Source of the DNA: Oscillospiraceae bacterium
GTDB taxonomy: Bacteria; Bacillota; Clostridia; Oscillospirales; Oscillospiraceae
Length of the DNA: 49,734 nt
NCBI GenBank assembly: GCA_015068365.1
Contig: SVKR01000035.1
Coordinates: 1-49,734 of the forward strand
Reading direction: 5' to 3'
Part shown: positions 2 to 31,953 of the stretch, in pieces
Layout: the number at the start of each line of letters is the position of its first letter
Position numbering within the stretch: position 1 is the stretch's first letter
Notes under the pieces: generated by a model
What the model was told of the DNA's origin: nothing
What the model saw: only the letters and a program-made list of their open reading frames with translations
Database searches by the model: none
Program-made: the position numbers and the translations under genes

Positions 2-1072
2 AAGCGCTTCCCCGAGATCGTCTTTTCCGACTTCCTCTGGACCATGCGCAGCATCTATCTGCCGCTGTTCCTGGTGCTGCAGGCCGAGCTGCCCCGGGCG
101 GATCTGTACCACTGCGTGGCCACGGGCTATGCCGGCGTGCTGGGCTGCATGGCGCAGCACCTCTACGGCAGCGAGCTTCTGGTGAGCGAGCACGGCATCT
201 ACACCCGCGAGCGCGAGGAGGAGCTGATCAAAGCGACCTGGGTGCAGAACACCTACAAAAATATCTGGATCAACCAGTTTTACCGCATGAGCCAGGTGGC
301 CTATGACCGGGCCTGGCTGGTCACCAGCCTTTACGGCCACGCGCGGGAGCTGCAGCTGGAGCTGGGCTGCCCGGCGGAGAAGACCCGCATCACCCCCAAC
401 GGCATCCGGGCGGAGCGCTTTCTGGACCTGCCGGGTAAGCGGGAGGAGGACGCGCCCTTCGTCAACGTCGGCGCCGTGCTGCGCGTGACCCCCATCAAGG
501 ACGTGAAGACCATGATCCAGGCCTTTTACGAGGCCAAGCAGCGCGTCGGCGCGCTGAAGCTGTGGATCATGGGCCCGACGGAGGAAAACCCGGAGTACGC
601 CGCGGAGTGCTTTGAGCTGGTGGAGCTTCTGGGCATCCGGGACGTGGTGTTCACCGGCACCGTGCAGGTGACGGAATACCTGGGCCGCATGGACTTCACC
701 ATCCTCACCAGCATCAGCGAGGGCCAGCCCCTCACCATTCTGGAGAGCTTTGCCGCCGGGAAGCCGGTCATTGCCACGGACGTGGGCAACTGCCGGGGCC
801 TGCTGTACGGCGAGGCGGGGGACACCCTGGGCGCGGCGGGGATTTTGACCCACATCATGAGCGTCAGCGAGCTGGCCCAGGCCATGGTGGACCTGGCCGC
901 CGACCCGGCGCGCACCCGCGCCATGGGCGAGATCGGCCGCCGCCGGGTATTGGAGCGGGGCTATCGCGCCGAGGACATGCGCAAGACCTATGAGCAGATC
1001 TACCGGGAATGCGCGGAAAGGCAGGCCATCCAGTGGCCGCAGCACCCCGTTTCCGTCACAGACAAGGCATAA
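2..1072 (+). CDS. pelF: GT4-family glycosyltransferase, PelF-like (5' end cut by window edge)
   Basis: The frame is open from nt 2 (KRFPEIVFSDFLW precedes the listed Met at 44). It has an SEHGIYTREREEE motif and a Glycos_transf_1-type C-terminal region (TSISEGQPLTILESFAAGKPVIATDVGNC). A PelG-like gene follows immediately. Confidence 0.7.
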   Translation, partial: KRFPEIVFSDFLWTMRSIYLPLFLVLQAELPRADLYHCVATGYAGVLGCMAQHLYGSELLVSEHGIYTREREEELIKATWVQNTYKNIWINQFYRMSQVAYDRAWLVTSLYGHARELQLELGCPAEKTRITPNGIRAERFLDLPGKREEDAPFVNVGAVLRVTPIKDVKTMIQAFYEAKQRVGALKLWIMGPTEENPEYAAECFELVELLGIRDVVFTGTVQVTEYLGRMDFTILTSISEGQPLTILESFAAGKPVIATDVGNCRGLLYGEAGDTLGAAGILTHIMSVSELAQAMVDLAADPARTRAMGEIGRRRVLERGYRAEDMRKTYEQIYRECAERQAIQWPQHPVSVTDKA

Positions 1073-1099
1073 CGCGAAAAAGAGAAGAGGCGAAGGTGC

Positions 1100-2605
1100 A
1101 TGGCCGGCGTAGGCATCACCCTCAACAAAATATTCGATAAGCGCTCCCTGGTGGCGCACGTCTATGGCTTCGGCTACAGCGCGCTCATCACCGTGGCCCC
1201 CATGTTCGTCATCATCGGCGCCATCCTCATCGCCCAGCTGCTGCTGGGCTATTCCGGCGTGGACTATTTCCGGCGGGAGCTGTTTGCCGACACGGTGCTG
1301 TATATCTTCATTTTCTCGCTTCTGGCGGCCTCGCCGTTCAACGCGGTGCTCAGCCGCTATCTCTCCGACACCATCTTTGAAGAGCGCTATGAGGACATCA
1401 TGCCCTGCTATTATGTCGGCCTCATCTGCTCCGTGGCGCTGGGGGCGCTGATGGCGATCCCCTTCTGCATCCACGAGCATATCGTGGGCGGCGTGCCGGC
1501 CTACTATGTCTTCACGGGCTACTGCGGCTTCATGGCGCTGCTGCTGGTGTTTTACTCCATGCTGTATCTGAGCATCACCAAGGACTACGGCAAGATCTCC
1601 CTCGCCTTCCTCCTCGGCATGCTTCTGACGCTGGGGATGAGCTTTCTGCTGGTGCGCGTGCTTGGCTGGGAGGTCACCTACGCGCTGCTGCTGTCGCTGG
1701 TCTGCGGCTTCATGCTGATCGGCTCGCTGGAGATCGCCATCATCCAGTCCTATTTCCGGCGCAATTCCCGCCGCTACCGCCCGGTGCTGCACTATTTCAA
1801 AAAATACTGGCAGCTCATCTTCATCAATTTTCTCTATACCCTGGGCCTGTATGTCCACAACTTCGTCTTCTGGACGACGGACCGGCACACGATCCTGGTC
1901 CACTCCTTTGTGACGATGATGAACTATGACATGGCAACCTGCCTTGCCATGTTCACCAACATCTCCGCCACCGTGATCTTCATCAGCCGGGTGGAGATGC
2001 GCTTCCACGACCGCTACAAGGCCTATTCCGAGGCCGTCATCGGCGGGCGGCGGCAGGACATCGTCAACACAAAGCAGCGCATGTTCCGCCAGCTCGGCGG
2101 CGAGATCATGAGCCTTGTGCGCACCCAGTTCATCATCACGGTGGTGCTGTTTCTGCTGCTCATCATCTTCCTGCCCTGGTTCGGCATCGGCGGCGAGATC
2201 CTGCGCATCTACCCCTGCCTGTGCGCGGGGTATTTCATCCTCTTTACCATGTACAGCGAAATCCTGTTTCTCTACTATTTCAACGACTTGAATGGCGCGC
2301 TTCTCACCGCCGCGGTCTTCTTCGCCGTGACGCTGCTGGGCAGCGGCACCGCCACGTTCCTGCCGGAGATCTGGTACGGCCTGGGACTCGTGATCGGGTC
2401 CTTCGCCGGCTTCAGCGCGGGCTACTTCCGCCTGCGCTGGGTGGAGCGGAATCTGGACGCGCACGTGTTCTGCACCGGCGCACTGATGAAAAAGGGCAGC
2501 GGTCCCAGGCCGTCCGGCAAGGTCTTTGACCGGCGGCGCGGCGACACGCCGGAATCGCTGAAAGCGGAGCTTGAGAAAAAGAAAGAAGGGGAAAACCATG
2601 GGTGA
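1100..2605 (+). CDS. pelG: Polytopic membrane protein, PelG-like exopolysaccharide exporter
   Basis: The N-terminus MAGVGITLNKIF..YGFGYSALITVAPMFVI resembles the PelG N-terminus as I recall it (MAGIGFELRKI..). About 12 hydrophobic segments and a charged C-terminal tail. An RBS (GAGAAGAGG) lies upstream of the ATG. Confidence 0.7.
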   Translation: MAGVGITLNKIFDKRSLVAHVYGFGYSALITVAPMFVIIGAILIAQLLLGYSGVDYFRRELFADTVLYIFIFSLLAASPFNAVLSRYLSDTIFEERYEDIMPCYYVGLICSVALGALMAIPFCIHEHIVGGVPAYYVFTGYCGFMALLLVFYSMLYLSITKDYGKISLAFLLGMLLTLGMSFLLVRVLGWEVTYALLLSLVCGFMLIGSLEIAIIQSYFRRNSRRYRPVLHYFKKYWQLIFINFLYTLGLYVHNFVFWTTDRHTILVHSFVTMMNYDMATCLAMFTNISATVIFISRVEMRFHDRYKAYSEAVIGGRRQDIVNTKQRMFRQLGGEIMSLVRTQFIITVVLFLLLIIFLPWFGIGGEILRIYPCLCAGYFILFTMYSEILFLYYFNDLNGALLTAAVFFAVTLLGSGTATFLPEIWYGLGLVIGSFAGFSAGYFRLRWVERNLDAHVFCTGALMKKGSGPRPSGKVFDRRRGDTPESLKAELEKKKEGENHG

Positions 2606-3005
2606 AGTAGTCAAATGGTGTGTCATTGCCATCGGCGCGGCGGTGTTCGTGCTGAATCTGTTCTCGCTGGCAAAGCGGCGGATGACGCCGGTGCTCAGCG
2701 TGGCGTGGAGCATTTTTGCCGTGCTGCTGCTGGTGCTGGGCTTCACGCTGCATCTCTCGGAGCTGAACGCCCTCATGAGCCCCCCGGTCGCGCTGCTGCT
2801 GATCATCGCCATGCTGGGCGTGATCTTCACCTTCTACCATGTCAGCACACAGATCTCCGAGCTGGTGGACAAGACCAATGAGCTGACCATGCAGGTGTCG
2901 CTGCTCAACTCAGAAAATGTGCGATTGATCCGCGAGCTGCGGCAGCGTGAGGCGGCCAAGGCGGCTGCGGAGGACGGGGAATGCGAAAAAAGCTCCTGTT
3001 CGTGA
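2598..3005 (+). CDS. Small membrane protein, DUF2304-like, with C-terminal coiled-coil tail
   Basis: I chose the ATG at 2598, preceded by AAGGGGA, over the TTG at 2571. It overlaps the pelG stop by 8 nt. Three to four TM segments then a charged helix. This type is typically found next to GT2 genes. Confidence 0.55.
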   Translation: MGEVVKWCVIAIGAAVFVLNLFSLAKRRMTPVLSVAWSIFAVLLLVLGFTLHLSELNALMSPPVALLLIIAMLGVIFTFYHVSTQISELVDKTNELTMQVSLLNSENVRLIRELRQREAAKAAAEDGECEKSSCS

Positions 3006-4174
3006 TCAACACCCTGGGCTGCGGCGGCACGGAAAAAGCGCTGCTGAACCTGCTTTCCAGCCCGGAGATCGCGGCGTGTGACTGCTCGCTTTACGTCCTG
3101 CTGGGCCAGGGAGAGCTGGTCAGCCGTCTGCCGGCGCATGTGAAGCTGCTGAACCGGGATTACTGCGCCGCCGACGTGCTCTCCGCCCGCGGCCGGCGCA
3201 CCGCCGCCAGCCGGGCGATCCGCCTGGGGATGCACCGGGGCGCGCTGCTGCGCAGCCTGCCCTACATCGCCGGAAACGGCATGCGGATGCTGCGCTCCGG
3301 GCGCTGGAAGGCGGAAAAGCTGCTGTGGCGCGCCGTGGCGGAGGGCACCGCGCCGCCGGAGGAGGAATACGACCTGGCCGTGGCCTATCTGGAGGGCGGG
3401 GCGACTTACTTCGTCAGCCGCGCCGTCCGGGCCCGGCGCAAGGTGGCCTTCGTCCATGTGGATTACCGCCGCGCCGGCTATACCCGGGAGCTGGACCGGG
3501 GCTGCTATGCCCGCTTCGACCGCGTCTTCTGCGTCTCCGACGAGGTGCGCAGCGCCTTTTTGCAGGTCTACCCGGAGCTGGAGGAGAAGGTGGGCGTGTT
3601 CCACAATCTCATCGACCGGCCCCGCATCCTGGCCATGGCGGAGATGGGCCCGGGCTTCACCGACGGCTATGACGGCCCGCGCATCCTCACCGTGGGGCGG
3701 CTGGTGGAGCAGAAGGCCATCGGCCTTTCCGTGGAGGCCATGCGCATCCTGCGCGAGCGGGGCGTGCGCGCCCGGTGGTACGTCCTGGGCGAGGGGGAAG
3801 AGCGCGCAGCGCTGGAAAAGCAGATCGCCGCGGCGGGCCTTTCGTCGGACTTTCTGCTGCCCGGCGTGGAGGAAAACCCCTATCCCTTCTTCCGGCAGGC
3901 GGCGCTGTATGTCCACTGCTCCCGCTTTGAGGGCTGCAGCATCGCCGTGCAGGAGGCCCAGACCCTGGGCAAATGCGTCATCGTGTCGGACTGCAGCGGC
4001 AACCGCGGGCAGGTGACCGACGGGGTGGACGGGCTGCTGTGCGCGCTGACGCCCGCCGCCATCGCCGACGCGGTGGAGCGCGCGCTGGCGGACGCAGCGC
4101 TGCGCCGCCGTCTGGGACAGGCCGCGGCGGCAAAGCAGTTTGCAAGCGAAGACATCGGACTGATATTTCAATAG
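2981..4174 (+). CDS. Glycosyltransferase family 4 (GT-B, Glycos_transf_1)
   Basis: N-terminal KLLFVINTLGCGGTEKALLNL and C-terminal E-x7-E-like region (FEGCSIAVQEAQTLGKCVIVSD). GGAGGA RBS. Confidence 0.8.
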   Translation: MRKKLLFVINTLGCGGTEKALLNLLSSPEIAACDCSLYVLLGQGELVSRLPAHVKLLNRDYCAADVLSARGRRTAASRAIRLGMHRGALLRSLPYIAGNGMRMLRSGRWKAEKLLWRAVAEGTAPPEEEYDLAVAYLEGGATYFVSRAVRARRKVAFVHVDYRRAGYTRELDRGCYARFDRVFCVSDEVRSAFLQVYPELEEKVGVFHNLIDRPRILAMAEMGPGFTDGYDGPRILTVGRLVEQKAIGLSVEAMRILRERGVRARWYVLGEGEERAALEKQIAAAGLSSDFLLPGVEENPYPFFRQAALYVHCSRFEGCSIAVQEAQTLGKCVIVSDCSGNRGQVTDGVDGLLCALTPAAIADAVERALADAALRRRLGQAAAAKQFASEDIGLIFQ

Positions 4175-4186
4175 ATTGATTGCAAG

Positions 4187-5029
4187 GTGAACAAGGTGTT
4201 AGACAGAAGAGACAGCGTAAACAAACCGGTCCTGGTCATCATTCCGGCATATAATGAGGAGAAGAGCATCGGCCCGGTGCTCCGGGCCCTGCACGCCCCG
4301 GAGATCGCCCGGATCGCCGATGTGCTGGTGATGAACGACGCGTCCACCGACGCCACGGCGGAGCTGGTGTGGGACAGCGGCGCGCACTGCGTGACGCATG
4401 TGTTCAACCTGGGCTACGGCGGCGGGCTGCAGGTGGGCTACAAGTACGCCGTGCGCCAGGGCTACCGCTATGTCATCCAGATGGACGCCGACGGCCAGCA
4501 TGACGTGTGCAATGTCATGGCGCTTTACCAGGCGCTGACCGGGCCGGAAAAGCCGGACATTGTCGTGGGCAGCCGCTATATGGAGGGCAGCGCGGAGTAT
4601 AACCCCGGCACGCTGCGCAACGTGGCCTACCGCTGGTTCCGCTGGATTTTGCGGCGGATGACCGGGAAAAACCTGGCCGACCCCACCAGCGGACTGCAGG
4701 GCCTGAGCCGCCGCGCCGTCCGCTTTTATGCCCGCTACCAGCATTTTGACGACCGCTATCCCGACGCCAACATGCTCGCGCAGATGCTGCTTCTGGGCTT
4801 TTCGGTGGAGCAGATCCCCGCCGTCATGCACTACCGCACCGAGGGGAAGAGCATGCACTCCGGCGTCATCAAGCCCGCCATCTATATGCTGCGCATGACG
4901 CTGAACCTCATCGCCGTGTGGATCCGCATCCGCGTGCTGAAGATCAACGTGAACGAGGCGGAGCTGCTGCTGCATGAGGGGGAGGAAGCCCCGATCGAGG
5001 AGGCGCACGATGCCCCGGTCACAGTGTGA
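4187..5029 (+). CDS. Glycosyltransferase family 2 (DPM1/polyprenol-phosphate GT-like)
   Basis: VLVIIPAYNEEKSIGPVL, MNDASTD and QMDADGQHD motifs, with a C-terminal TM helix. The start is uncertain (GTG 4187 or GTG 4196). Confidence 0.85.
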   Translation: MNKVLDRRDSVNKPVLVIIPAYNEEKSIGPVLRALHAPEIARIADVLVMNDASTDATAELVWDSGAHCVTHVFNLGYGGGLQVGYKYAVRQGYRYVIQMDADGQHDVCNVMALYQALTGPEKPDIVVGSRYMEGSAEYNPGTLRNVAYRWFRWILRRMTGKNLADPTSGLQGLSRRAVRFYARYQHFDDRYPDANMLAQMLLLGFSVEQIPAVMHYRTEGKSMHSGVIKPAIYMLRMTLNLIAVWIRIRVLKINVNEAELLLHEGEEAPIEEAHDAPVTV

Positions 5030-6023
5030 GATCGACTTTGTGCTGACCTGGGTCAACGGCGATGACCCGGACTGGCGCGCAGCGCGTGAGCGCTTCCCGG
5101 TGCCCGGCGGCGCGGACGTGCGCCCGGAGCGCTACCGCGACTGGGGCTGGCTGCGCTGGTGGCTGCGGGGGGTGGAGCGCTTTGCGCCCTGGGTGCGCTG
5201 TGTGCATCTGGTGGCGGCGGGAGCGCTGCCGGACTGGCTGGACACCGCCCACCCGAAACTGCACATCGTCCGCCACGAGGACATTCTGCCGCCGGAGGCG
5301 CTGCCCTGCTTCAACGGCAACGCCCTGGAGGTGAACCTGCACCGCATCCCCGGCCTGACGGAGCAGTTTGTCTATTTCAACGACGACATGCTTCTGCTGC
5401 GCCCGACGGCGCCGGAGGATTTCTTCCGCGACGGAAAGCCCCGTGACATGCTGGCGGCCCAGCCCGTCATCGCAAACCCGGACAACCCGGTGATGAGCAG
5501 CATTCTGCTGAACGACTCCCTGGTCATCAGCCGCCACTTCCGCAAGCGCGAGGTCATGCGCCGGAACACGGGGCGCTGGTGGCACGTCGGCTATCCGCTG
5601 AAGTATTTCGGCTATAACCTGCTGGAGACGGCCTTTCCGCAATATACCGGCTTCTATACCGTCCACGGCCCGTCGCCGCTGCTGCGCCGCAGCTTTGAAG
5701 AGCTGTGGGATCTGGAGCCGGAGCCGCTGCGGGCCACCACGGCGCGGCGCTTCCGCTCCGCCGCGGACGTGACGCAGTACCTTTTCCGCGAGTGGGAAAA
5801 GCAGCGGGGCAACTTCGTCCCCGCCAACGTGGAGCGTGACCTGCTCTATTTTGAGGCAGACGACGTATCCCGCGCCTGCGCCGCGGTGCGCGCGCGCAAA
5901 CGCAAGATGATCTGCATCAACGACACCGGACGCCTTTCGGATTTTGCCGCGGCGCGGACGGCGCTGGAGGGCGCCTTCGCCGCGGTTTTGCCGGAGGCTT
6001 CGTCCTTTGAGGCGGCGCCATGA
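5010..6023 (+). CDS. Stealth-family capsular polysaccharide phosphotransferase (hexose-1-phosphate transferase)
   Basis: IDFVLTWVNGDDPDW (Stealth CR1-like) and YFNDDMLL (CR2-like). ATG at 5010, 6 nt after GAGGAGG. Overlaps the GT2 stop by 20 nt. Confidence 0.8.
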   Translation: MPRSQCEIDFVLTWVNGDDPDWRAARERFPVPGGADVRPERYRDWGWLRWWLRGVERFAPWVRCVHLVAAGALPDWLDTAHPKLHIVRHEDILPPEALPCFNGNALEVNLHRIPGLTEQFVYFNDDMLLLRPTAPEDFFRDGKPRDMLAAQPVIANPDNPVMSSILLNDSLVISRHFRKREVMRRNTGRWWHVGYPLKYFGYNLLETAFPQYTGFYTVHGPSPLLRRSFEELWDLEPEPLRATTARRFRSAADVTQYLFREWEKQRGNFVPANVERDLLYFEADDVSRACAAVRARKRKMICINDTGRLSDFAAARTALEGAFAAVLPEASSFEAAP

Positions 6024-7222
6024 GCGACGTGCTTTCAAGGGAGGAGACCGCGCTGCTGGCCCTGGCGCGCGCGGCGCTGACCGGCGCTGCGGCAGAGGGT
6101 GTCAGCGCGGACACGGACTGGGAGGGCCTTTGCGCCCTGGCGGAAAAGCACGCGGTGCTGCCGCTGCTGTGCCCGGTGCTGCAGGGCCTTGCGCCGGAGC
6201 GGCTGTGGAAGCCGGCGGCGGAGAAGTGCACCGCGCAGTTTTACCGCTTGGCGGTGATGAGCCGCTATTATACCGCGCTTCTGGCGGAGGCCGGCGTGAA
6301 GACCGTGGTGCTCAAGGGCGCGGGCGCGGCGCGGTATTACCCCGTGCCGGAGCACCGCAAAAGCGGCGACATCGACCTGCTGCTGGCCGATCCCGGGCAG
6401 ATGGAGCAGGCCTGCCGTGTCCTGGAATCCGACGGCGCCGCGGCGCTTTCGGAGCAGCACGCCAACCACCACCGCGCGTTCCGCAGCCCGGAGGGCATCG
6501 AGCTGGAGGTGCACAGCACGCTGACGGAGGATTTTGACGACGGGCGCGTCAACGCCCTGTGCGCTTCGCTGCGCGATGAACTCGGCCGCAGCGCCGAGGT
6601 GCGCGAGGTGCTGCCGGGCCTGGCGCTGCCCGTGCCGGACGCGGCGGGGCAGGCGGTCTCGCTGCTGCTGCACATGCTGCAGCACTTTCTGCGGGCCGGC
6701 TTCGGGCTGAAGCTGCTGTGCGACTGGGCGGCGTTCTGGAACGCGCTGCCCCCGGGGACGGACATGGCGCGCTATGAGCGCTTCGTGGACGAGGCCGGGG
6801 TGCGCGGCTTTGCCGACATGGCGGGCGGCGTGTGCGTGCGGTATCTGGGCCTGCGCCCGGAGCAATTGACGATCACGCGCAGCTTTGAAGCGGACACTGT
6901 TTGCACTTTCCTGCGCGAGGTCTTTGACGCGGAGGAGTTCGGGCGCAGCAGCAGCCGGCGCATGGTGATGGTGCGCCGGGGCCTTGCCGGCTACGTCCGG
7001 GAATTTCACCATCAGATGCACCTGAATTTTCCCCGCGCGGGACGATGCCCGCTGCTCTGGCCGGCGCTCTGGTGCGCCACGCTCTGGCGCTTTCTGCGCA
7101 ATAACCGCACCGTGCGCGGCACCACGACGGGGGCCGTTCTGAAGGAGGCGCGGCGGCGCAGCCGGCTCATGGAGCCGCTGGCACTGTTTCAGAATCAGAA
7201 AGATGTCGGTGAATCCCGGTAA
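6020..7222 (+). CDS. Uncharacterised nucleotidyltransferase (NTP_transf_5 type)
   Basis: VVLKGAGAARYYPVPEHRKSGDIDLLL is the typical minimal nucleotidyltransferase motif of this family. The ATG overlaps the Stealth stop (ATGA). Confidence 0.7.
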   Translation: MSDVLSREETALLALARAALTGAAAEGVSADTDWEGLCALAEKHAVLPLLCPVLQGLAPERLWKPAAEKCTAQFYRLAVMSRYYTALLAEAGVKTVVLKGAGAARYYPVPEHRKSGDIDLLLADPGQMEQACRVLESDGAAALSEQHANHHRAFRSPEGIELEVHSTLTEDFDDGRVNALCASLRDELGRSAEVREVLPGLALPVPDAAGQAVSLLLHMLQHFLRAGFGLKLLCDWAAFWNALPPGTDMARYERFVDEAGVRGFADMAGGVCVRYLGLRPEQLTITRSFEADTVCTFLREVFDAEEFGRSSSRRMVMVRRGLAGYVREFHHQMHLNFPRAGRCPLLWPALWCATLWRFLRNNRTVRGTTTGAVLKEARRRSRLMEPLALFQNQKDVGESR

Positions 7223-7242
7223 ATCTTGTACATTATTTCCAA

Positions 7243-7271
7243 TTGTAATGTTGACCTTTCCATGCTATACT
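7243..7271 (+). promoter_or_regulatory. Sigma-A-like promoter for the 146-aa ORF
   Basis: TTGTAA, 17 nt, TATACT, with an extended -10 TGc, inside an AT-rich 89-nt intergenic island. Confidence 0.5.
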
Positions 7272-7311
7272 CTAAATGTGAAATTATTTCCTGTTTGAAA
7301 GGGGTAATCAT

Positions 7312-7752
7312 ATGTATTCCAAACCCATCGTTCTGACCCACAGCGACATGGCCGAGGGCGTTTATGCCGCCAGCGGCGCGGCCACCTGCTGGTCCGGCAG
7401 CTGTCCCAGCGTGCAGAACTGGAACGGCTCTCACAACGTTTTTGAAGTCCGCATTTCCCACAGTGCCGACGTGCAGCACATCTCCAACGCCGTGACCATC
7501 ACGATCCAGTTCAACAGCCCGCTGACGGATGTCTACGCCGAGAACGGCTGGAGCTGCACTGCCAACGGCAGCACCGTCACCGTGACCAGACCCAGCCATG
7601 CCAACGCCTACAACTCCGGCGACAACGTGACTTTCAAGATCTGGGCCAAGGCCGCGGATGAGACCACCACCAAGGCCCTGTATGCCAACATCACCGGCTT
7701 CAGCTGCGATTACAGCGCCAACGTCCAGGGCAACGGCGGCGACGGCAACTAA
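7312..7752 (+). CDS. Hypothetical 146-aa protein; candidate substrate or cargo of the flanking modification/export cassette
   Basis: AAAGGGG RBS 7 nt before the ATG, own promoter and terminator, and C-ending codon bias like the host genes. No hydrophobic signal peptide. N-terminus MYSKPIVLTHSDMAEGVYAASGAA, then C-x4-C, then a Thr/Ser/Asn-rich beta-type body. Confidence 0.75.
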   Translation: MYSKPIVLTHSDMAEGVYAASGAATCWSGSCPSVQNWNGSHNVFEVRISHSADVQHISNAVTITIQFNSPLTDVYAENGWSCTANGSTVTVTRPSHANAYNSGDNVTFKIWAKAADETTTKALYANITGFSCDYSANVQGNGGDGN

Positions 7753-7782
7753 GCCGCAGCGCAAACCCAACTCAGAAGCAAA

Positions 7783-7819
7783 AAGCACCGCAGACACACT
7801 GCGGTGCTTTTCCGTTTTT
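7783..7819. terminator. Shared (convergent) intrinsic terminator
   Basis: AAGCACCGCAG / CTGCGGTGCTT stem followed by TTCCGTTTTT, with an A-run on the other side. It sits between convergent genes. Confidence 0.7.
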
Positions 7820-7824
7820 ACCGT

Positions 7825-9600
7825 TCAAAACTCCCGGATGAGCTGCTCCACCTCGTCGCCGGAGAGCAGCGTGAGGCGCTTGTCGCGGATCTGATAGACC
7901 CGGGTGCACATGGTCAGCACCGTGGGGCGGTGGGTGGTGACGATGCACACGCGGGGGTACTCGTCGGCCATGATGCTGCGCAGCACCCGCCGCTCCGTGG
8001 CCACGTCCAGGGCGGAGGAGGCCTCGTCCAGCAGCAGGATCGGGCTGCGGCGCAGCAGCGCGCGCGCGATGGACAGGCGCTGGGCCTGCCCCTCGGAAAA
8101 GCCGCCGCCCCGCTCCTTGACGGCGCTGTCGATGCCGTCGGGCAGCTTGTCCACGAAATCCAGCGCGCAGGCCAGACGCAGCGCATCGCGGATCTCATCG
8201 TCCGTGGCGTCGGGGCAGACGGTGCGCATATTCTCGGCGATGGTGCCGGAGAACATGGTGTTGCCCTGGGGCACATAGGCGAAGGCGCTGCGCGCCGCCG
8301 GGGTCAGCGGCAGGGTTTCGCCGTCCGCGCCGCGCAGTGTGACGGTGCCGGCGTGAGGCTGCACCAGCGCCAGCAGCAGGCGCAGCATGGTGGTCTTGCC
8401 CTCGCCGCTGGGGCCGACCAGGCCGATGATCTCATGCGGCCGGGCCGTGAAGGAGGCGCCGGAGAAGACCTGGGTGCCGGTCTTGTAGCTGTAATCCACC
8501 GCGTCCACCTCCAGGCTGATGCCCTCGGTGCGGTGGGCTTCGATGAACTGCTCGGCGCGTTCGGTGCCGCTGTAATCCTCCTGGGGCATCTCCAGAATGT
8601 CCATGAGCCGCCCGGCGGAGGTGGTGAGGGAGATGGCGCTGGGCACGATGCCGGCCAGGGAGTTGACCGCGCCGGTCAGCGTGCCGCTGAGGGCCAGGAA
8701 CATGGTCATGGAGCCGTAGGTGATGGCGCCGCTCCAGACCCGGTAGATGCCCCAGCCGTAGGAGCTGTAGCTGACCAGCAGCCCCACAAAGCCCAGGATC
8801 ACGCTGGTGGCCATGGACATGCGGGAGAACTCCAGGCGCATGTTGATGTAGTCGTCCTGCAGCTGCCGCAGCCGCGCCACATAGAGCTTCACCAGTCCGA
8901 AGGCCTTGATGGTCTGGATGTTGGAAAAGGTCTCCTGGTTGAAGCCGGACATTCTCGCTGCCATCTGGGCGCTGCGCTGGTTGTTGCTCTGCATCCGGTT
9001 CAGCAGCCGCCGGGACATGACGAGGCTGAAGGGGATGCCCAGCAGGGCGAAGATGGCAAAGCTGGGGTCATGGTACAGCACCACGTACAGCGCGCTGAAA
9101 AAGCGGAACATATTGATGACCAGATTTGGCACAAAGCCCAGCACGCCGTTGGAGATGGCCGAGGCGTCGCTGCTCCAGCGGGTCAGCAGGTCGCCGGTGT
9201 GGTAGGCCGTGAGGCTCTCCCAGTCGGTGACGAGGATCTTGGAGAAGATGTCCTGCTTGATCTCCGCGTCCACCCGCATGCTGATGCGGGCGGAGACATA
9301 GCCGGTGATCTGGCTGACGACGATGTTGCCGACGGCCAGACCGATCATGATGGAAAAGGTGCGGATCAGCTCGCCGGTGCGGTGGCCGGTGATGATGTCC
9401 ACCAGATCGCGGCTGACCATGCTGGTGAGCAGCCCCACCAGCGAACCGGCCATGCCCAAAAGCGTGTAGAAGATCATGGCGCGGTGATAGCGCTTGGCAT
9501 AATTGTAGATCCACATGGCCTGGCGCCAGATCTCCCGGATGCGGCCGGACTTGACGCGCTCCCGGTAAAAGCGCAGGCGGTTTTTCAGACTGTCAGCCAT
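7825..9600 (-). CDS. ABC exporter, fused permease/ATPase (MsbA/type I exporter fold), no C39 peptidase domain
   Basis: Six TM segments. Walker A GPSGEGKTT, signature FSEGQAQRLSIARA, Walker B ILLLDEASSALD. Confidence 0.9.
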   Translation of the reverse strand: MADSLKNRLRFYRERVKSGRIREIWRQAMWIYNYAKRYHRAMIFYTLLGMAGSLVGLLTSMVSRDLVDIITGHRTGELIRTFSIMIGLAVGNIVVSQITGYVSARISMRVDAEIKQDIFSKILVTDWESLTAYHTGDLLTRWSSDASAISNGVLGFVPNLVINMFRFFSALYVVLYHDPSFAIFALLGIPFSLVMSRRLLNRMQSNNQRSAQMAARMSGFNQETFSNIQTIKAFGLVKLYVARLRQLQDDYINMRLEFSRMSMATSVILGFVGLLVSYSSYGWGIYRVWSGAITYGSMTMFLALSGTLTGAVNSLAGIVPSAISLTTSAGRLMDILEMPQEDYSGTERAEQFIEAHRTEGISLEVDAVDYSYKTGTQVFSGASFTARPHEIIGLVGPSGEGKTTMLRLLLALVQPHAGTVTLRGADGETLPLTPAARSAFAYVPQGNTMFSGTIAENMRTVCPDATDDEIRDALRLACALDFVDKLPDGIDSAVKERGGGFSEGQAQRLSIARALLRRSPILLLDEASSALDVATERRVLRSIMADEYPRVCIVTTHRPTVLTMCTRVYQIRDKRLTLLSGDEVEQLIREF

Positions 9601-10762
9601 GTCCGCCCTCCTCCAAAAACGCGTCGATGGCCCGCTTCAGCGTCTCCGCGGCCTGGGGCTGCGGGGTGCATTCCAGCTCCCACATGCCGCAGTGCCGGGC
9701 CAGAAGCGCGGCAAAGGTGAGGTTCTCCTGCAAAAGCGTTTCGGTCCACACCGGGGACACCAGCCGGTTGGCGCAGCGCAGTGGTCTCTCCTCCGGCGGC
9801 AGGGGGCGGGCGGCGTTTTCGCCCGCGCGGCGCAGGAAGGCAATGCCGCCCAGAGGATGGCGCTCCCGCCGGGCGATGCCGCTGGTGCCGCACCAGGGCA
9901 GGGGGTGGAACACGGCGCCGCCGCCCGTGACGGAGAGCAGCGCCAGGTCGCCGTTGAGCACCGGGACGCCGTACCCGGCCTGCCACAGGCGGGCGTGGGT
10001 GCTTTTGCCCGTCCCGGCGGAGGCGGAGAAGAGCCAGACGCGCTCCCGATAGAGGACGGAGGCGGCGTGCATGGCGAAAAAACCGCACTTCTGCGCGCGA
10101 AAAAGCGCCACATGGCGCAGCGCGTGAAAGAGGTCGTCCCTGGCGCGGGCCTCGTCATAGCCGGGGTGCAGGGTGATGACGGCCCGGTCCCCCGCCGGCG
10201 TCATTGCCGCGCCGGCGACGTCCGGCATGGTGGGAAAGCGCAGCAGCAGGCAGCTCTCGCCGGCGTAGACCTCCAGCTCACGGTTTGCCAGCAGGCAGCG
10301 CAGCCCCGCCGGGCCCGGCGCTGCGCCGGAGACGACGGCCACGCTCTGCCGGGGGCGCTGCGCGGCGTCCACAGGCTCGAGGTAGGGCGCAAAGTCGCCG
10401 TGCAGCAGCGCCTCGGCGCAGCAAAGCCGCACGCGCAGCGGCCCCACGGCCAGGTCGGCGCAAGGGCTGGCCAGGTCGAGCGGGTCGGGAAACGCCCCCT
10501 CCAGCACGCCGAGGGCGCGCATCTGCCCCACAAAGCCGGCGGCGTCGCCCGCGGCGCGGGCGCGCTCCGCCTCCGGCAGGGCGGCCAGAAAGGCCTCCTC
10601 CGCCGCGTCGGCGTCCGGGCAGGCCTCCAGAAGCTTCCACAGCGCCGCGCCGCCGCCTTCCAGGCGCAGGGCGGGGCGCTGCTCGGCCACAGCCTGGCCA
10701 AAGGGCAGGAGCCATGCGCCGTCCGGCAGGTTTTGCAGCGTATAAAACGGATTCTTTTTCAT
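9593..10762 (-). CDS. Fusion protein: N-terminal PqqD-like (RRE) domain + HPr-kinase-related kinase domain
   Basis: I chose the ATG at 10762 (MKKNPFYTLQNL), preceded by GAGGG. The N-terminal ~95 aa fit the PqqD pattern (..LPDGAWLLPF..ALRLEGGGAALWKLLE..). The C-terminal part has the P-loop SASAGTGKST and LNGDLALL, as in HprK-like kinases. The stop overlaps the ABC start by 8 nt. Confidence 0.65.
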   Translation of the reverse strand: MKKNPFYTLQNLPDGAWLLPFGQAVAEQRPALRLEGGGAALWKLLEACPDADAAEEAFLAALPEAERARAAGDAAGFVGQMRALGVLEGAFPDPLDLASPCADLAVGPLRVRLCCAEALLHGDFAPYLEPVDAAQRPRQSVAVVSGAAPGPAGLRCLLANRELEVYAGESCLLLRFPTMPDVAGAAMTPAGDRAVITLHPGYDEARARDDLFHALRHVALFRAQKCGFFAMHAASVLYRERVWLFSASAGTGKSTHARLWQAGYGVPVLNGDLALLSVTGGGAVFHPLPWCGTSGIARRERHPLGGIAFLRRAGENAARPLPPEERPLRCANRLVSPVWTETLLQENLTFAALLARHCGMWELECTPQPQAAETLKRAIDAFLEEGGHG

Positions 10763-10791
10763 AAGGACCCTCATTTGTGCGCAAATAGGAC

Positions 10792-10820
10792 TTGCCAAGC
10801 CTGCGCACTTGTCATAAAAT
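10792..10820 (+). promoter_or_regulatory. Sigma-A-like promoter for the peptidase gene
   Basis: TTGCCA, 17 nt, TAAAAT. This makes the track's TTG start at 10792 implausible. Confidence 0.55.
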
Positions 10821-10857
10821 ACTATTTATAACGCATGGAAAGCGGGAGGCGCCGCCC

Positions 10858-11295
10858 TTGGAGCGAAGCGGGGGAAAAGTGGACATCGAAGCCTGCCTCG
10901 CCGCAGGGGAGACGGTGCAGTTTCCCATCCGGGGCTGGAGCATGTATCCCTTCCTCGCCGACGGGCGGGACCAGGCGGTGGTCGCCCCGGCGGAGGGGAC
11001 GGCGCTGCGCCGCGGGGACGTGGCGCTTTACCGGCGGGACGGCGGCATACTGGTGCTGCACCGCGTCTGGCGGCACGACGCCGCGGGGCTGTGGTTCGTG
11101 GGCGACAACCAGACCGCGGTGGAAGGCCCGCTGCGGCCCGACCAGGTCCGCGGCAAGCTGACCGCCCTGTGCCGCAAGGGGCGGATGATCTCCGCCGACG
11201 ATGCGCGCTACCGGATCCTCAGCCGGCTGTGGCTTCTCGCGCGGCCGCTTCGGCCCGCGATCTCCCACGCGGTCCATGCGCTGCGAAATCTGTAA
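10858..11295 (+). CDS. S24/S26-family serine peptidase, SipW/ER-type (Ser-His) signature, no N-terminal TM anchor
   Basis: TTG at 10858 lies 8 nt after GGGAGG (GTG 10879 is an alternative). Motifs GWSMYPFL (Ser box), VLHRVW (His where P-type signal peptidases and LexA carry Lys) and GDNQTAVEGP. Confidence 0.65.
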   Translation: MERSGGKVDIEACLAAGETVQFPIRGWSMYPFLADGRDQAVVAPAEGTALRRGDVALYRRDGGILVLHRVWRHDAAGLWFVGDNQTAVEGPLRPDQVRGKLTALCRKGRMISADDARYRILSRLWLLARPLRPAISHAVHALRNL

Positions 11296-20620: not shown

Positions 20621-21520
20621 ATGAAGGAAGCGAGCACCTTGGCAAGCGAAGAGAAAATAGATGTGAAACTGCCGATGCGCCCGGCGCTGCCCGTTTGGGC
20701 CGATCTGCTGATCACGGCGGCGTGCATGGGGCTTCTGATCTTCATTGTCTATCAGTTCAAGATCCCCAACCCCAACATGATCCTGATCGCCGGACTGGTG
20801 ATCTGCTCGTCGCTGATGGGCTATCCCGGCGGCATCCTGGCCGGGCTCATCATGCTGGGCTACACCCTTTATTTCTTCTCTGAGGGCAACGACTTTGTCA
20901 CCTTCGGCCCCCAGAACACCCGGAAGGTCATCGTCTCCCTGGTCGGCATCGTGGTGGACCTCATCTTCGTCTGCGAGCTGAAGCGCCGCCGGGACGCGGC
21001 CTTTCGGGAGATCCGCGCGCTGACCGAGGCGCTGAGCGAGGACAACCGCCGGCTGCAGGAGGCCTCCGAGGTGGACGGGCTGACAAAGATCCACAACCGC
21101 CTGGCCCTGCGCCTGCGCTATCCCGGCTATAAGGACAAGGATGTCCACGTGATGATGCTGGACATCGACGATTTCAAGCAGATCAACGACCTGCACGGCC
21201 ACGGCACCGGCGACCGCGCCCTGGCGGAGACCGGCAGGCTTCTGGCGGAGACCTTCGGCCGCAGCCACTGCTACCGCTACGGCGGGGATGAGTTTCTGGT
21301 GATCGCGCCGGGGCTTTCCGACGCGGAGTTTGAGGACAAGCTCCGGAGCGTCACCGCCGAGCCGCTGGAGCTGCCGGTCAAGGACGGGAAGATCGACATC
21401 GTCTATTCCTACGGCTATGTCCAAGGGAAGGCGGACGCCGGCTGCCCCCTGCGGGATATGATCAGCCAGGCGGACGAGCGCATGTACGCCCACAAGCACG
21501 AAAAGGGCACCGGACGCTGA
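20621..21520 (+). CDS. Membrane-anchored diguanylate cyclase (GGDEF)
   Basis: Three to four N-terminal TM segments, a coiled linker, DIDDFKQINDLHGH and YRYGGDEFLV. The start is uncertain (weak RBS at 20621). Confidence 0.85.
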   Translation: MKEASTLASEEKIDVKLPMRPALPVWADLLITAACMGLLIFIVYQFKIPNPNMILIAGLVICSSLMGYPGGILAGLIMLGYTLYFFSEGNDFVTFGPQNTRKVIVSLVGIVVDLIFVCELKRRRDAAFREIRALTEALSEDNRRLQEASEVDGLTKIHNRLALRLRYPGYKDKDVHVMMLDIDDFKQINDLHGHGTGDRALAETGRLLAETFGRSHCYRYGGDEFLVIAPGLSDAEFEDKLRSVTAEPLELPVKDGKIDIVYSYGYVQGKADAGCPLRDMISQADERMYAHKHEKGTGR

Positions 21521-23547: not shown

Positions 23548-24894
23548 TCAGGCCTCCGGGTTCCAGCGGAAGCAGAGCATGGTCATGTCGTCGAACTGGC
23601 TGTTGCCGTCGATAAAGGTGTCGATCGTGGATTTCACGTCGGAGAGAATCTGCGCCGGGGCGCTGGCGCTTTTGTCCGCAAAGCACTGCAGCAGCCGCTC
23701 CTCGCCGAAGAGCCGGTGGTTCCGGTCGTCGGCCTCGGTCACGCCGTCGGTGTATAAGTACAGAATGTCGCCGGGGAGGAGCTGCATGCTCTGCTCCCGG
23801 TATTTCACGTCCTCCATGCCGGCCAGGACGAAGCCGTTTTTGAAGCGGAGATACTGCCCGGCGTTGTCCCGCAGCAGCACCGGCGGGTTGTGCCCGGCGC
23901 TGACGAAGCGCAGCGCGCCGCTGCCCAGATCCAGGATGCCCACCCACAGCGTCACGAACATCTCCGCCTCGTTGCGGGCGCAGAGGATGTTGTTCGCCGC
24001 CTCGATCGCCGTGGTGAGGTCGGGGATGTCGCGGATGCAGTTTTGCAGGGTGATCTTCGCCGACGCCATGAAGATCGCGGCGGGGACGCCCTTGCCGGAA
24101 ACGTCGCCGATCAGGAAAGCCAGATGGGTGGGGTCCACGTAAAACAGGTCGTAGAAATCGCCGCCGACGGTCTTTGCCGCCTCCATGGAGGCGCTGACGA
24201 CCAGCGATTTGCTGCCGGGATAGTCCTCGCTGATGGTGGGCAGGAGCGAATGCTGGATGACGTTCGCCACCTCCAGCTCCGACTGCAAGCGGCTGCGCTC
24301 CAGCGCCAGGTCGCGCTGGTGTTCCATATAGGTCATGATGACGATCATCAGCGCAAAGCCCAGGGCGTTGACCAGGATGAAGGGCAGCGCGATCTGCTTC
24401 ACGATGTCCAGCGCGGTCTCAAACGGGCGGACCATCAGCAGCACCAGGCCCAGGTGGAAGGCCTCCATCAGCGCGCTGAGCAGCAGGGCGAAGCCGGGCT
24501 TCGTGACCTGGCTGCGCCATTTGCTGGACACAAAGCCGCAGATGAGGCCGATGCAGCAGGTCGCCACCACGCAGGCCCGCGCCGTGATGCCGCCCATCGT
24601 CAGCCGGTGGACGCCGGCGATCAGCCCGGCGATCAGGCCGCCCAGCGGCCCGCCGGAAAAGCCCGCCAGCATGGGGCCGATGTCCCGCACGGAGACCACC
24701 GCGCCGTTCACGTCAAAGCCGGAGATGTTGCCGTAGATGCCGAAAACGCCGCCCAGAAGGCCGACAATGACGGAATACTTCCAGCGCTTGCCGGCCGTGA
24801 ACAGCTTGGCCAGGCTGTCGCTGCTGCTGATAAACGCCGCCACGACCAGCATCACGGCCACCGTGCCGATCATTCTTGAAAACAACATGCTCAT
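23548..24894 (-). CDS. PP2C/SpoIIE-family Ser/Thr phosphatase with N-terminal 5TM LytS-type sensor domain
   Basis: The N-terminal polytopic region is glycine-rich, as in 5TMR-LYT. The C-terminal part has GGDFYD, GDVSGKGVPAAIFMA, GHNPPVLL and LYLYTDGVTEA. Confidence 0.8.
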   Translation of the reverse strand: MSMLFSRMIGTVAVMLVVAAFISSSDSLAKLFTAGKRWKYSVIVGLLGGVFGIYGNISGFDVNGAVVSVRDIGPMLAGFSGGPLGGLIAGLIAGVHRLTMGGITARACVVATCCIGLICGFVSSKWRSQVTKPGFALLLSALMEAFHLGLVLLMVRPFETALDIVKQIALPFILVNALGFALMIVIMTYMEHQRDLALERSRLQSELEVANVIQHSLLPTISEDYPGSKSLVVSASMEAAKTVGGDFYDLFYVDPTHLAFLIGDVSGKGVPAAIFMASAKITLQNCIRDIPDLTTAIEAANNILCARNEAEMFVTLWVGILDLGSGALRFVSAGHNPPVLLRDNAGQYLRFKNGFVLAGMEDVKYREQSMQLLPGDILYLYTDGVTEADDRNHRLFGEERLLQCFADKSASAPAQILSDVKSTIDTFIDGNSQFDDMTMLCFRWNPEA

Positions 24895-30504: not shown

Positions 30505-31953
30505 ATGACCAAGAGCATCTATACAAAACTGGTTGCGATCTTCCTGGTGCTGATCCTGGCCCTGATGGCCGTGGTGGGCGCCTTCCTGATGCGCGGCGTG
30601 CGGAACTTTTACATCAATCAGTTCTACACCCAGATGCAGGAGGCCTTTTCCGGCGCGGTCATGGCCGGCGACCTGCGCGCCGCGGCGGACGAGCCGGACG
30701 CGGCTGCGCGCATGGCGGACATTCTGCGCGCCAACTCCGGCCAGCTGGGCATCAGCGCCGGCACCCGCAACTATTTCATCCTGGACGGGGAGAGCGGGGC
30801 CTATCTCACCGGCTCTGACCCGGCCATGGGCGCGCATCTGGCCGTCACCCGCAACATTCTGACCGCCATGAGCGGCAGCGAGGGCTACGCCTCCAACAGC
30901 GGCGACGACTATATGGACGTCGCCCTGCCCATCCGGGGGGAGAGCGGCAGCTATATCATCTACATCATCGACAACAAGGACACGGTGACGGATCTGAACG
31001 CGGAGCTGTTCCGCATCATCTCTGAGGCGCTGGCCATCGGATTGCTGATCGCCGTGCTGCTGAGCCTGCTGCTGGCAAAGACCATGGTGACCCCCATCCA
31101 GAGCCTGACCCGCGCCGCGGAGAAGGTGGCCGCCGGGGACTTTTCCGAGTCCGTGGAGAACGATTCACGCGATGAGATCGGCGTGCTGACCCGCACCTTC
31201 AACGACATGGCGGGCCAGCTGGAGAGCAACATCGAGGATCTGAAAAACGCCGAGCAGATGCGGAAAGAATTCGTGGCCAACGTCTCCCACGAGCTGCGCA
31301 CCCCCGTCACCAGCATCCGCAGCTATGCCGAGACCCTCTGCGACGCCGGCGAGAGCATGGACCCCGCCACCGAGCAGCGCTTTCTGGAGGTCATCCTGGG
31401 CGAGAGCGACCGGATGACCAAGATCGTGCAGGATCTGCTGACCCTTTCAAAGTTCGATGCCGGCAGCATCGACTTCGACTTCGGCCAGTTTTCCTTTGAA
31501 AAGTCCGTTCAGGACGTGTACAACGCCCAGGTGCTGGAGGCGCAGAAGCACCACCACAACTTCGGCCTGGAGTTTGAAAGCGAGCTGCCGCTGATCCGGG
31601 GCGACCGGGCCAGAATCGAGCAGGTGCTCATCAACATGCTCTCCAACGCCATCAAATACACCCCCGACGGCGGGCGCATCCGCATGACCGCCGGGGCGAA
31701 GGACGACAGCGTGTGGTGCACGGTGCGCGACAACGGCATCGGCATCCCGAAAAACGACCTCTCCCATGTGTTCGAGCGCTTTTACCGCGTGGACAAGGCC
31801 CGCTCGCGCGAGTCCGGCGGCACGGGATTGGGGCTTTCCATCGCCTATGAGATCGTCCAGCGCCACGACGGCAAAATGGAGATCCACAGCCAGAAGGGGA
31901 AGGGCACCGCCATCACGGTGACCCTGCCCGTGGGAGGGCCGGCCCATGACTAA
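30505..31953 (+). CDS. Sensor histidine kinase (2 TM, extracytoplasmic loop, HAMP, HisKA, HATPase_c)
   Basis: H-box FVANVSHELRTP, N-box LSNAIKYTP, and DNGIGIP / GGTGLGLSI. Confidence 0.9.
   Translation: MTKSIYTKLVAIFLVLILALMAVVGAFLMRGVRNFYINQFYTQMQEAFSGAVMAGDLRAAADEPDAAARMADILRANSGQLGISAGTRNYFILDGESGAYLTGSDPAMGAHLAVTRNILTAMSGSEGYASNSGDDYMDVALPIRGESGSYIIYIIDNKDTVTDLNAELFRIISEALAIGLLIAVLLSLLLAKTMVTPIQSLTRAAEKVAAGDFSESVENDSRDEIGVLTRTFNDMAGQLESNIEDLKNAEQMRKEFVANVSHELRTPVTSIRSYAETLCDAGESMDPATEQRFLEVILGESDRMTKIVQDLLTLSKFDAGSIDFDFGQFSFEKSVQDVYNAQVLEAQKHHHNFGLEFESELPLIRGDRARIEQVLINMLSNAIKYTPDGGRIRMTAGAKDDSVWCTVRDNGIGIPKNDLSHVFERFYRVDKARSRESGGTGLGLSIAYEIVQRHDGKMEIHSQKGKGTAITVTLPVGGPAHD

Follow-up and report, generated by a model that had tools for sequence, protein, structure and literature searches.

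A β-sandwich protein behind a shared leader as probable precursor of a variant LPP-type pathway in Lachnospiraceae

Why would a small protein with a folded domain carry the N-terminus of a peptide precursor? The question is raised by an open reading frame (ORF) at positions 7312 to 7752 of contig SVKR01000035.1; the whole stretch of DNA analysed, 49,734 nucleotides long, is called the window below. In a first-pass annotation, made from the sequence alone, such a cargo with a RiPP-style leader next to a PqqD domain and a dedicated ATP-binding cassette (ABC) exporter was regarded as unusual. We consider the ORF, with a probability of about three in four, to be the precursor (A protein) of a pathway akin to those that yield RiPPs (peptides made on the ribosome and modified after translation), of the type described as "linear polyphosphorylated peptides" (LPP) of Bacillota (Popov et al., Nat Commun 2026;17:6633, PMC13381572). 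The architecture as such had already been published as LPP in May 2026, though not with this clade, fusion or kind of folded core. Judged by sequence comparison, the system is a member of LPP in an undescribed variant, with a fusion of RiPP recognition element (RRE) and kinase, an altered leader end, folded cargo from several families and a Lachnospiraceae host. The parts of the precursor are as follows.

7312..7752, plus strand: precursor protein gene, 146 amino acids, ATG start; leader, putative phospho-acceptor tag, short linker, β-sandwich core and C-terminal tail
7315..7338, plus strand: Y2-S-K-P5-I-V7-L-T-H, predicted RRE-binding motif (Y-x-x-P-x-V-L-x-H); Y and P 98% conserved over all body families
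7354..7377, plus strand: E15-G-V-Y-A-A-S21-G22, conserved end of the common module; predicted cleavage zone G16 to A19, Ser21 as putative phospho-acceptor
7387..7731, plus strand: β-sandwich core, residues 26-140; AlphaFold2 predicted local distance difference test (pLDDT) ~90; alignment A1

In the window, the N-terminal module reads M-Y-S-K-P-I-V-L-T-H-S-D-M-A-E-G-V-Y-A-A-S-G. In the family alignment (A1), which shows three conserved parts (N-terminal module, body and C-terminal end), it reads M-K-x-Y-E-K-P-x-V-x-x-N-E-E-L-A-E-G-V-Y-A-A-S-G. Eighty loci around homologues were fetched, and their six-frame translations were scanned for the N-terminal motif. ORFs with the same N-terminus numbered 115 by motif scan and 119 by hidden Markov model (HMM) scan, and 31 of the 80 loci had two to four such ORFs, often arranged in tandem immediately upstream of the ABC gene. 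No second leader-bearing ORF was found in the window when the leader HMM was run over all six frames. Without the module, the bodies fell into at least six clusters unconnected by BLAST. The largest (84 ORFs) contained the query family and a diverged C-Y-T-V...C-G-Q-H subfamily; a Cys-rich family of ~115 amino acids (17 ORFs), a CBM2-like family (9 ORFs; Pfam CBM_2 E=1.4e-4, below threshold) and three smaller groups made up the rest.

Leader conservation was 90-100% up to S-G and then stopped abruptly. Each of the columns Y, P, E, G, Y, A, S and G carried ~4 bits of information, compared with ~1 bit straight after S-G. The search pattern itself had set the E, G, Y, S and G columns; those of M, Y, P and A were free and reached 90-98%. 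A serine occupied the Ser21 position in 118 of the 119 leaders. An alignment of homologues had been proposed to compare the N-terminus and the AASG region with the body; over the leader-bearing ORFs, it is the stretch up to S-G that is conserved throughout. In the 115 leader-bearing proteins, the maximum Kyte-Doolittle value over 10 residues within the first 26 had a median of 0.79 and a highest value of 1.5. No 19-residue window reached 1.6 in any of them, so there is no Sec-type h-region, in agreement with the first-pass annotation, which had seen no hydrophobic core. By sequence, the N-terminus behaves as a transferable leader of ~16-22 residues, in RiPP style. The "leader-like" label of the earlier description is thus supported: within the same loci, these ~24 residues stand in front of six or more unrelated bodies, and they contain Y-x-x-P-x-V, the motif bound by lasso-type RREs.

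These data bear on one alternative, a structural protein of the usual kind, cytoplasmic or Sec-independent, whose N-terminus serves folding or oligomerisation, with RiPP-like neighbours by coincidence. In its favour, Pfam and NCBIfam assigned no family to the ORF, nor to five further bodies that bear the leader; there were sub-threshold matches only (Cadherin-like, Lum_binding, CBM_2). This alternative is scarcely credible, given that the N-terminus recurs on unrelated bodies, is predicted to be disordered and is followed by a variable linker, and that the neighbourhood is conserved over the 80 loci.

The published reference for LPP is the LppA/K/B/S/D/N set of Paenibacillus alginolyticus (PMC13381572). 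LPP clusters sit inside capsular-polysaccharide loci and encode one to three precursors of 35-200 amino acids, with a conserved N-terminus (YxxPxVLxHQxIxFETxxS) and variable C-termini (PMC13381572). LppK adds several phosphates to core Ser3; LppS (S29, H68, D93) cuts after T-1 and requires LppB (PMC13381572). LppB, the RRE, binds YxxP; in its crystal structure with the leader (9x8z), Tyr-16 is hydrogen-bonded to D70 and Pro-13 is stacked on F74; a role of LPP in biofilms was put forward as speculation only (PMC13381572). Around the precursor gene in the window, counterparts of these components and a polysaccharide locus were found.

6020..7222, plus strand: PF14907 (NTP_transf_5) nucleotidyltransferase, LppN/PsmN equivalent; PF14907 E=1.8e-35
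7825..9600, minus strand: MsbA-like ABC exporter, 591 amino acids, LppD equivalent; no C39 peptidase domain
9593..10762, minus strand: RRE-kinase fusion, 389 amino acids, LppB + LppK equivalent; PqqD-type RRE (~1-100) and HprK/PEPCK-fold P-loop kinase
10858..11295, plus strand: SipW-like (archaeal/ER-type) signal-peptidase-I homologue, 145 amino acids, LppS equivalent; S28 (GWSMYP), H68 (LVLHR), D83 (GDN), E89 (EGP)
44..6023, plus strand: Pel-like exopolysaccharide genes (GT4 fragment, PelG, DUF2304, GT4, GT2, Stealth); genomic context, not core parts

The peptidase has a GGGAGG ribosome-binding site (RBS) 5' of a TTG start and lacks a transmembrane segment. Its motifs follow the Ser/His pattern of ER/archaeal-type signal peptidases, and its best NCBIfam match was TIGR02228, below cutoff. 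S28, H68 and E89 align with S29, H68 and D93 of LppS, and the family profile matched LppS with E=1.5e-18. The "S26-like" neighbour of the earlier description is thus homologous to a leader peptidase that was shown experimentally to depend on an RRE (PMC13381572).

The 389-residue start of the RRE-kinase was taken from the gene call in near-identical contigs. PF05402 was present in 14 of 14 members, and the RRE family profile matched the lasso B1 protein TbiB1 (5v1u, E=2.9e-5), LppB (9x8z chain B, 2e-3 to 9e-3) and also TfuB1. The conserved D and F of its D-A-A-G-F align with D70 and F74 of LppB. On sequence grounds, we class the neighbouring PqqD domain as an RRE of the lasso/LPP type. These profile matches, together with the ABC gene beside the ORF in most loci, bear out the PqqD domain and the dedicated exporter named at first. 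The AlphaFold2 model of the fusion had a pLDDT of 90, and its kinase part showed the PEPCK/HprK fold (Foldseek: PEPCK 1e-6; HprK/P 1kkl, 1jb1 and 3tqf ~2-4e-5). The Walker A motif G-x-G-K-[ST] was invariant within S-G-T-G-K-S-T-H, and Pfam Hpr_kinase_C gave no match to the kinase part. Single-sequence searches of the Protein Data Bank (PDB) with the RRE-kinase and with the peptidase gave no matches; profiles were needed. The fusion was kept in 120 listed of 142 homologues, with a few fragments or outliers excepted. In many of these homologues (proteins P0084-P0202) the kinase part carried a precomputed Pfam match, PF27840.1.

For the ABC exporter, the best NCBIfam match was TIGR02204 MsbA_rel (1.7e-74, below the equivalog cutoff), and its transmembrane domain begins at residue 42. 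A literature search on PF14907 returned nothing relevant.

The window shares with LPP the same set of SipW-type Ser/His peptidase, lasso-type RRE, HprK-like kinase, PF14907 nucleotidyltransferase and MsbA-like exporter. The leader opens [K]-x-Y-x-[KR]-P-x-V-L-x-H in both, a conserved Ser stands just after it, and clusters hold several precursors (1-3 or more) with conserved N-termini and variable C-termini. Both lie in a polysaccharide locus, and neither has a lasso cyclase or B2 peptidase in its core cluster. The window leader, Y-S-K-P-I-V-L-T-H, fits the first half of the LPP logo, and the ORF was the best of 938 six-frame window segments against an HMM of Bacilli LPP leaders, with a weak E of 0.09. 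The reciprocal HMM aligned just the K-x-Y-x-K-P-x-V-L part, and neither match reached beyond the first half of the logo.

The variant differs from published LPP in several respects. The RRE is discrete in LPP and fused to the kinase here; the leader ends in L-A-E-G-V-Y-A-A-S-G instead of F-E-T-x-x-S; the host belongs to Lachnospiraceae (Clostridia) instead of Bacilli; and the cores are regarded as folded domains of 90-130 residues (β-sandwich, CBM2-like, Cys-rich). Among the Bacilli precursors taken from Supplementary Data 1 of PMC13381572, most are 40-75 residues long and Gly/Pro-rich, and folded cores are not discussed in the main text of that paper.

Several observations weigh against assigning the ORF to LPP. 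One is the leader end just mentioned: counted from Tyr, E lies at 13 (14 in LPP) and Ser at 19 (18 in LPP), each off by one. As the second half of the leader differs, cut site and acceptor Ser are extrapolations. The cross-similarity of the leader HMMs was weak (E 3e-4 to 0.09 in small databases). The peptidase and RRE were much nearer to clusters 4 and 20 of the published sequence similarity network (SSN), which are uncharacterised in PMC13381572, than to LppS and LppB (peptidase 5e-44 to 8e-31, RRE ~1e-17). Export of a 13-kDa domain via an MsbA-type exporter is an assumption. Lastly, the partner genes were found within 10 kb of the homologues in just 41-51 of the 80 loci (nucleotidyltransferase 51, RRE-kinase 45, peptidase 41), in part because of contig ends. 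SSN clusters 4 and 20, with a few SpI-like peptidases of Clostridia (Dehalobacter, Anaerocolumna, Lachnoclostridium An76), contain the closest published relatives of the window peptidase and RRE; they are listed with discrete "RRE others" and with precursors "ND" (PMC13381572).

The ABC gene was found within 10 kb in 76 of the 80 loci, at 60-69% identity and usually directly downstream. Such constancy, compared with the counts for the other partners, would suit a bacteriocin-like system of leader-dependent export only: the ABC exporter would read the N-terminus, the peptidase would trim it, and the kinase-like protein and nucleotidyltransferase would act on the exopolysaccharide. The location of the cluster inside a Pel-like/Stealth polysaccharide locus agrees with this, as does the lack of LppN activity on peptide in the published heterologous system (PMC13381572). 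In this clade, however, the kinase is physically fused to the peptide-binding RRE, which makes sense only if the kinase substrate bears the leader. In addition, LppK phosphorylates its precursor, and the unphosphorylated LPP precursor is cleaved poorly (PMC13381572), and export alone leaves the invariant Ser-Gly at the module end without a role. We regard export only as unlikely.

For the LPP-type pathway, the published steps are carried over to this variant by homology; where the cut falls, which Ser is the acceptor, what the nucleotidyltransferase does and how the product is exported and used are inferred. The disordered leader would dock via Y2-x-x-P5-x-V7 onto the RRE domain fused to the HprK-like kinase, which would phosphorylate the invariant Ser21, probably several times. 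The PF14907 nucleotidyltransferase may then extend the Ser21 phosphate with a sugar or nucleotide-derived group, as PsmN of pseudomycoidin is reported to elaborate phosphate. The soluble SipW-type Ser/His peptidase, presented with its substrate by the RRE, would cleave between G16 and A19, a short way upstream of Ser21. Three alignments to LPP place the cut at G16|V17 (E at -2), V17|Y18 (spacing from Tyr) or Y18|A19 (Ser at +3). The cut first proposed, inside AASGAA, probably lies too far downstream by a few residues: LPP is cut after F-E-T and phosphorylated at Ser+3, and Ser21 would stay on the mature protein. The MsbA-like exporter would then secrete the product, a 115-residue β-sandwich whose flexible linker carries a modified N-terminal tag, V/Y-A-A-S(P)-G. 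In this model, one machinery serves several unrelated cargo domains behind a common leader, and the last module residues form a modification tag that is kept on every cargo, so that conservation runs through S-G, beyond the cut. The product would probably end up at the cell surface or in the exopolysaccharide matrix.

Three other known systems share features with the window but do not fit. The phosphorylated lasso peptides (paeninodin with PadeK, pseudomycoidin with PsmK/PsmN) likewise combine tailoring by an HprK-like kinase and a PF14907 nucleotidyltransferase with an ABC exporter and a PqqD-like B1 RRE that binds [Y/W]xxP leaders. However, a lasso peptide requires an asparagine-synthetase-like macrolactam cyclase and a transglutaminase-like B2 cysteine peptidase, and neither was found among the ORFs from 6020 to 11295, all accounted for, the rest of the window being sampled partly. 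In addition, the putative acceptor Ser lies near the core N-terminus here and is C-terminal there, and the product is a folded protein instead of a threaded peptide of 15-25 residues.

In the TasA/TapA-SipW system of Bacillus subtilis, an archaeal/ER-type signal peptidase is also encoded beside a few dedicated matrix proteins in a biofilm/exopolysaccharide context. There, SipW is anchored in the membrane, and its substrates have Sec signal peptides that are hydrophobic; in the window, the leader is hydrophilic, the peptidase is without a transmembrane segment and export is predicted to be by an ABC protein. A Sec/SipW signal-peptide substrate was rejected on the missing h-region and the soluble peptidase. 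Peptidase-containing ABC transporters (PCATs) also secrete small proteins in a leader-dependent, Sec-independent way through a dedicated ABC exporter, which is predicted here, and the transmembrane and nucleotide-binding regions of PCAT1 are homologous to the window exporter (E=1.6e-49). The exporter here has no C39 domain, the leader ends in S-G without a GG/GA motif, and a separate serine peptidase and RRE are present instead, so a double-glycine substrate was rejected as well.

The core was predicted with confidence. AlphaFold2 folded residues 25-140 into a β-sandwich with pLDDT ~90, in line with the Ig-like sandwich that had been read from the sequence, and gave pLDDT <50 at residues 1-21 and 141-146. 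Of the C-terminal tail first described as flexible, NVQGNGGDGN, the last six residues agree with the low pLDDT, and only N137-V-Q-G140 is invariant. The body begins at the invariant C26-W27; H50, H56-I-S58, R93, Y100 and G103-D104 are also invariant (alignment A1). The length between S-G and the body varies from 0 to a Pro/Thr/Glu-rich linker of 30-70 residues. The four cysteines counted at first (residues 26, 31, 82 and 132) were verified, and only C26 (invariant) and C132 (≥90%) are conserved. The proposed C26-x4-C31 motif had to be given up because even the nearest relative, 90% identical, lacks C31. Foldseek of the core against the PDB gave weak matches (TM-score 0.35-0.45) to CBM2, cohesin, adhesin (CLIPPER) and BslA-type sandwiches; such generic matches make a functional assignment impossible. 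Taken together, binding-module folds, flexible linkers and the Pel-like/Stealth context favour a role at the surface or in the matrix over an antibiotic one.

Further cargo families occur in loci L003, L028, L037, L063, L064, L066 and others, without a Pfam or NCBIfam model. One is the Cys-rich family of ~115 amino acids, with the motif …PKCDSxYMxGVWQAPDYSDW…GCGL…DPVTDWxM; the others include the CBM2-like family and a …CNxxCGQH family.

The precursor family is large. In a word-indexed search, relatives down to 35% identity fell into 82 clusters at 90% identity; all are of ~141-180 amino acids, and none has a Pfam domain or a name. An exhaustive profile search (E ≤1e-3) found 429 clusters at 50% identity, nearly all of 100-180 amino acids and matching from residue 1. 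Two 1600-residue matches in the representative search were rejected as non-relatives, being generic matches of Ig repeats to the strand region with T-V-T-V. Relatives are encoded in 198 species genomes (one genome per species), nearly all of Lachnospiraceae of gut and rumen, for example Acetatifactor, Roseburia and Lachnospira. Most species pairs showed purifying selection, with ratios of nonsynonymous to synonymous substitution rates (dN/dS) of 0.03-0.33; pairs with locus L010 were left out of the dN/dS table as artefacts of an unrelated ABC gene. The first reading would have been refuted by an ORF devoid of conserved homologues or coding conservation, which is therefore not what we found.

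A different picture emerged for the nearest relative. Window positions 7402-7713 (residues 31-134) were compared with positions 6091-6402 of locus L081, which has identical synteny and a flanking dS of 0.02-0.04. The two ORFs differed by 3 synonymous and 18 nonsynonymous changes (dN/dS 1.73), with 15 residues that differ, compared with dN/dS 0.0-0.41 in eight neighbouring genes of the same pair with the same dS (Fisher p=2e-6 vs ORF); the value of 1.73 was not significantly above 1 (p=0.29). Every change fell within residues 31-134, the first 30 codons being free of them (p ~0.008), so that the leader was unchanged and the core held all 18 nonsynonymous changes. For three locus pairs (L003/L028, L029/L066 and L017/L038), the cargo dS was 1.7-2.7 and the dS of the adjacent ABC gene 0.4-0.9. 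The far greater divergence of the cargo suggests an exchange of cargo cassettes around a machinery that is retained.

A nonsynonymous excess fits a surface-exposed or conflict-related product, and it keeps a bacteriocin-like reading alive at low probability. Here, the protein would be a large toxin, an antimicrobial or conflict effector, and the cargo families a toxin repertoire. The swapping of varied cassettes between related loci, with cargo dS far above ABC dS, and the excess over the flanking genes would be expected of it, and the distribution of LPP is patchy and driven by horizontal gene transfer, as is typical of conflict systems (PMC13381572). No immunity-like small membrane protein was found in the cluster, though; the bodies resemble binding modules (CBM2-like, Ig/cohesin/BslA-like sandwiches), the context consistently consists of exopolysaccharide genes, the dN/dS is not significantly above 1 and other pairs are under purifying selection. 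A toxin is accordingly rated quite improbable, below export only.

If the ORF is an LPP-type precursor, LPP-type cores can be whole predicted domains with binding-module folds, flexibly linked to a predicted modified Ser. Many unrelated cargos on one leader would shift the question from peptide antibiotics towards protein tagging and matrix assembly, in a clade, the gut and rumen Lachnospiraceae, that is abundant. As a candidate portable tag, the 22-residue module might allow folded-domain cargo to be modified in a kinase-dependent way and exported without Sec. As a speculative extension, to which we give only a slim chance, the LPP-type machinery of Lachnospiraceae could be a general route of protein tagging and export. 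Any small domain with the module would be given an N-terminal phospho- or phosphoglycosyl-Ser handle, and after export the cargo would be joined through it covalently or tightly to a phosphoglycan made by the Pel-like/Stealth genes. This would be a previously unknown way of building a protein-decorated exopolysaccharide matrix in gut anaerobes.

Fusions suggest which components act together. Besides the RRE-kinase, locus L002 (~12.6-14.3 kb, minus strand) encodes nucleotidyltransferase and peptidase in one ORF of 577 amino acids. The locus comes from a metagenome-assembled genome, and the fusion could be a frameshift artefact; in this single locus, it may link both enzymes functionally.

The expression signals named by the first-pass annotation (promoter-like site, RBS, terminator and a bias for C-ending codons) are all present in the sequence.

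7243..7271, plus strand: sigma-70-like promoter TTGTAA-17-TG-TATACT in an AT-rich island, read from sequence
7298..7304, plus strand: RBS AAAGGGG, 7 nt 5' of the ATG, read from sequence
7781..7811, plus strand: intrinsic-terminator-like hairpin with a 13-bp stem and T-run, between the convergent precursor and ABC genes

One promoter-like site was found near the ORF, and 0.3 were expected in shuffled sequence. The GC content of the AT-rich island was 0.47-0.50, compared with 0.65-0.75 in the flanks. C-ending codons made up 66% of the ORF and 37-58% of nine neighbouring genes.

Stealth, GT2, GT4 and PelG genes were also frequent near the homologues in the other loci. In the window, a Stealth hexose-1-phosphotransferase (4974-6023, plus strand) co-occurs with a NAGPA-type phosphodiester glycosidase (PF09992; 26210-27148, minus strand). 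These are the bacterial counterparts of the two enzymes by which eukaryotes make the mannose-6-phosphate tag, and here they lie near a predicted phospho-serine protein system. Further downstream, a GGDEF diguanylate cyclase (20621-21520, plus strand), a 5TMR-LYT/SpoIIE phosphatase (23548-24894, minus strand) and a HAMP histidine kinase (30505-31953, plus strand) are encoded, and these three could be regulators of the Pel-like locus.

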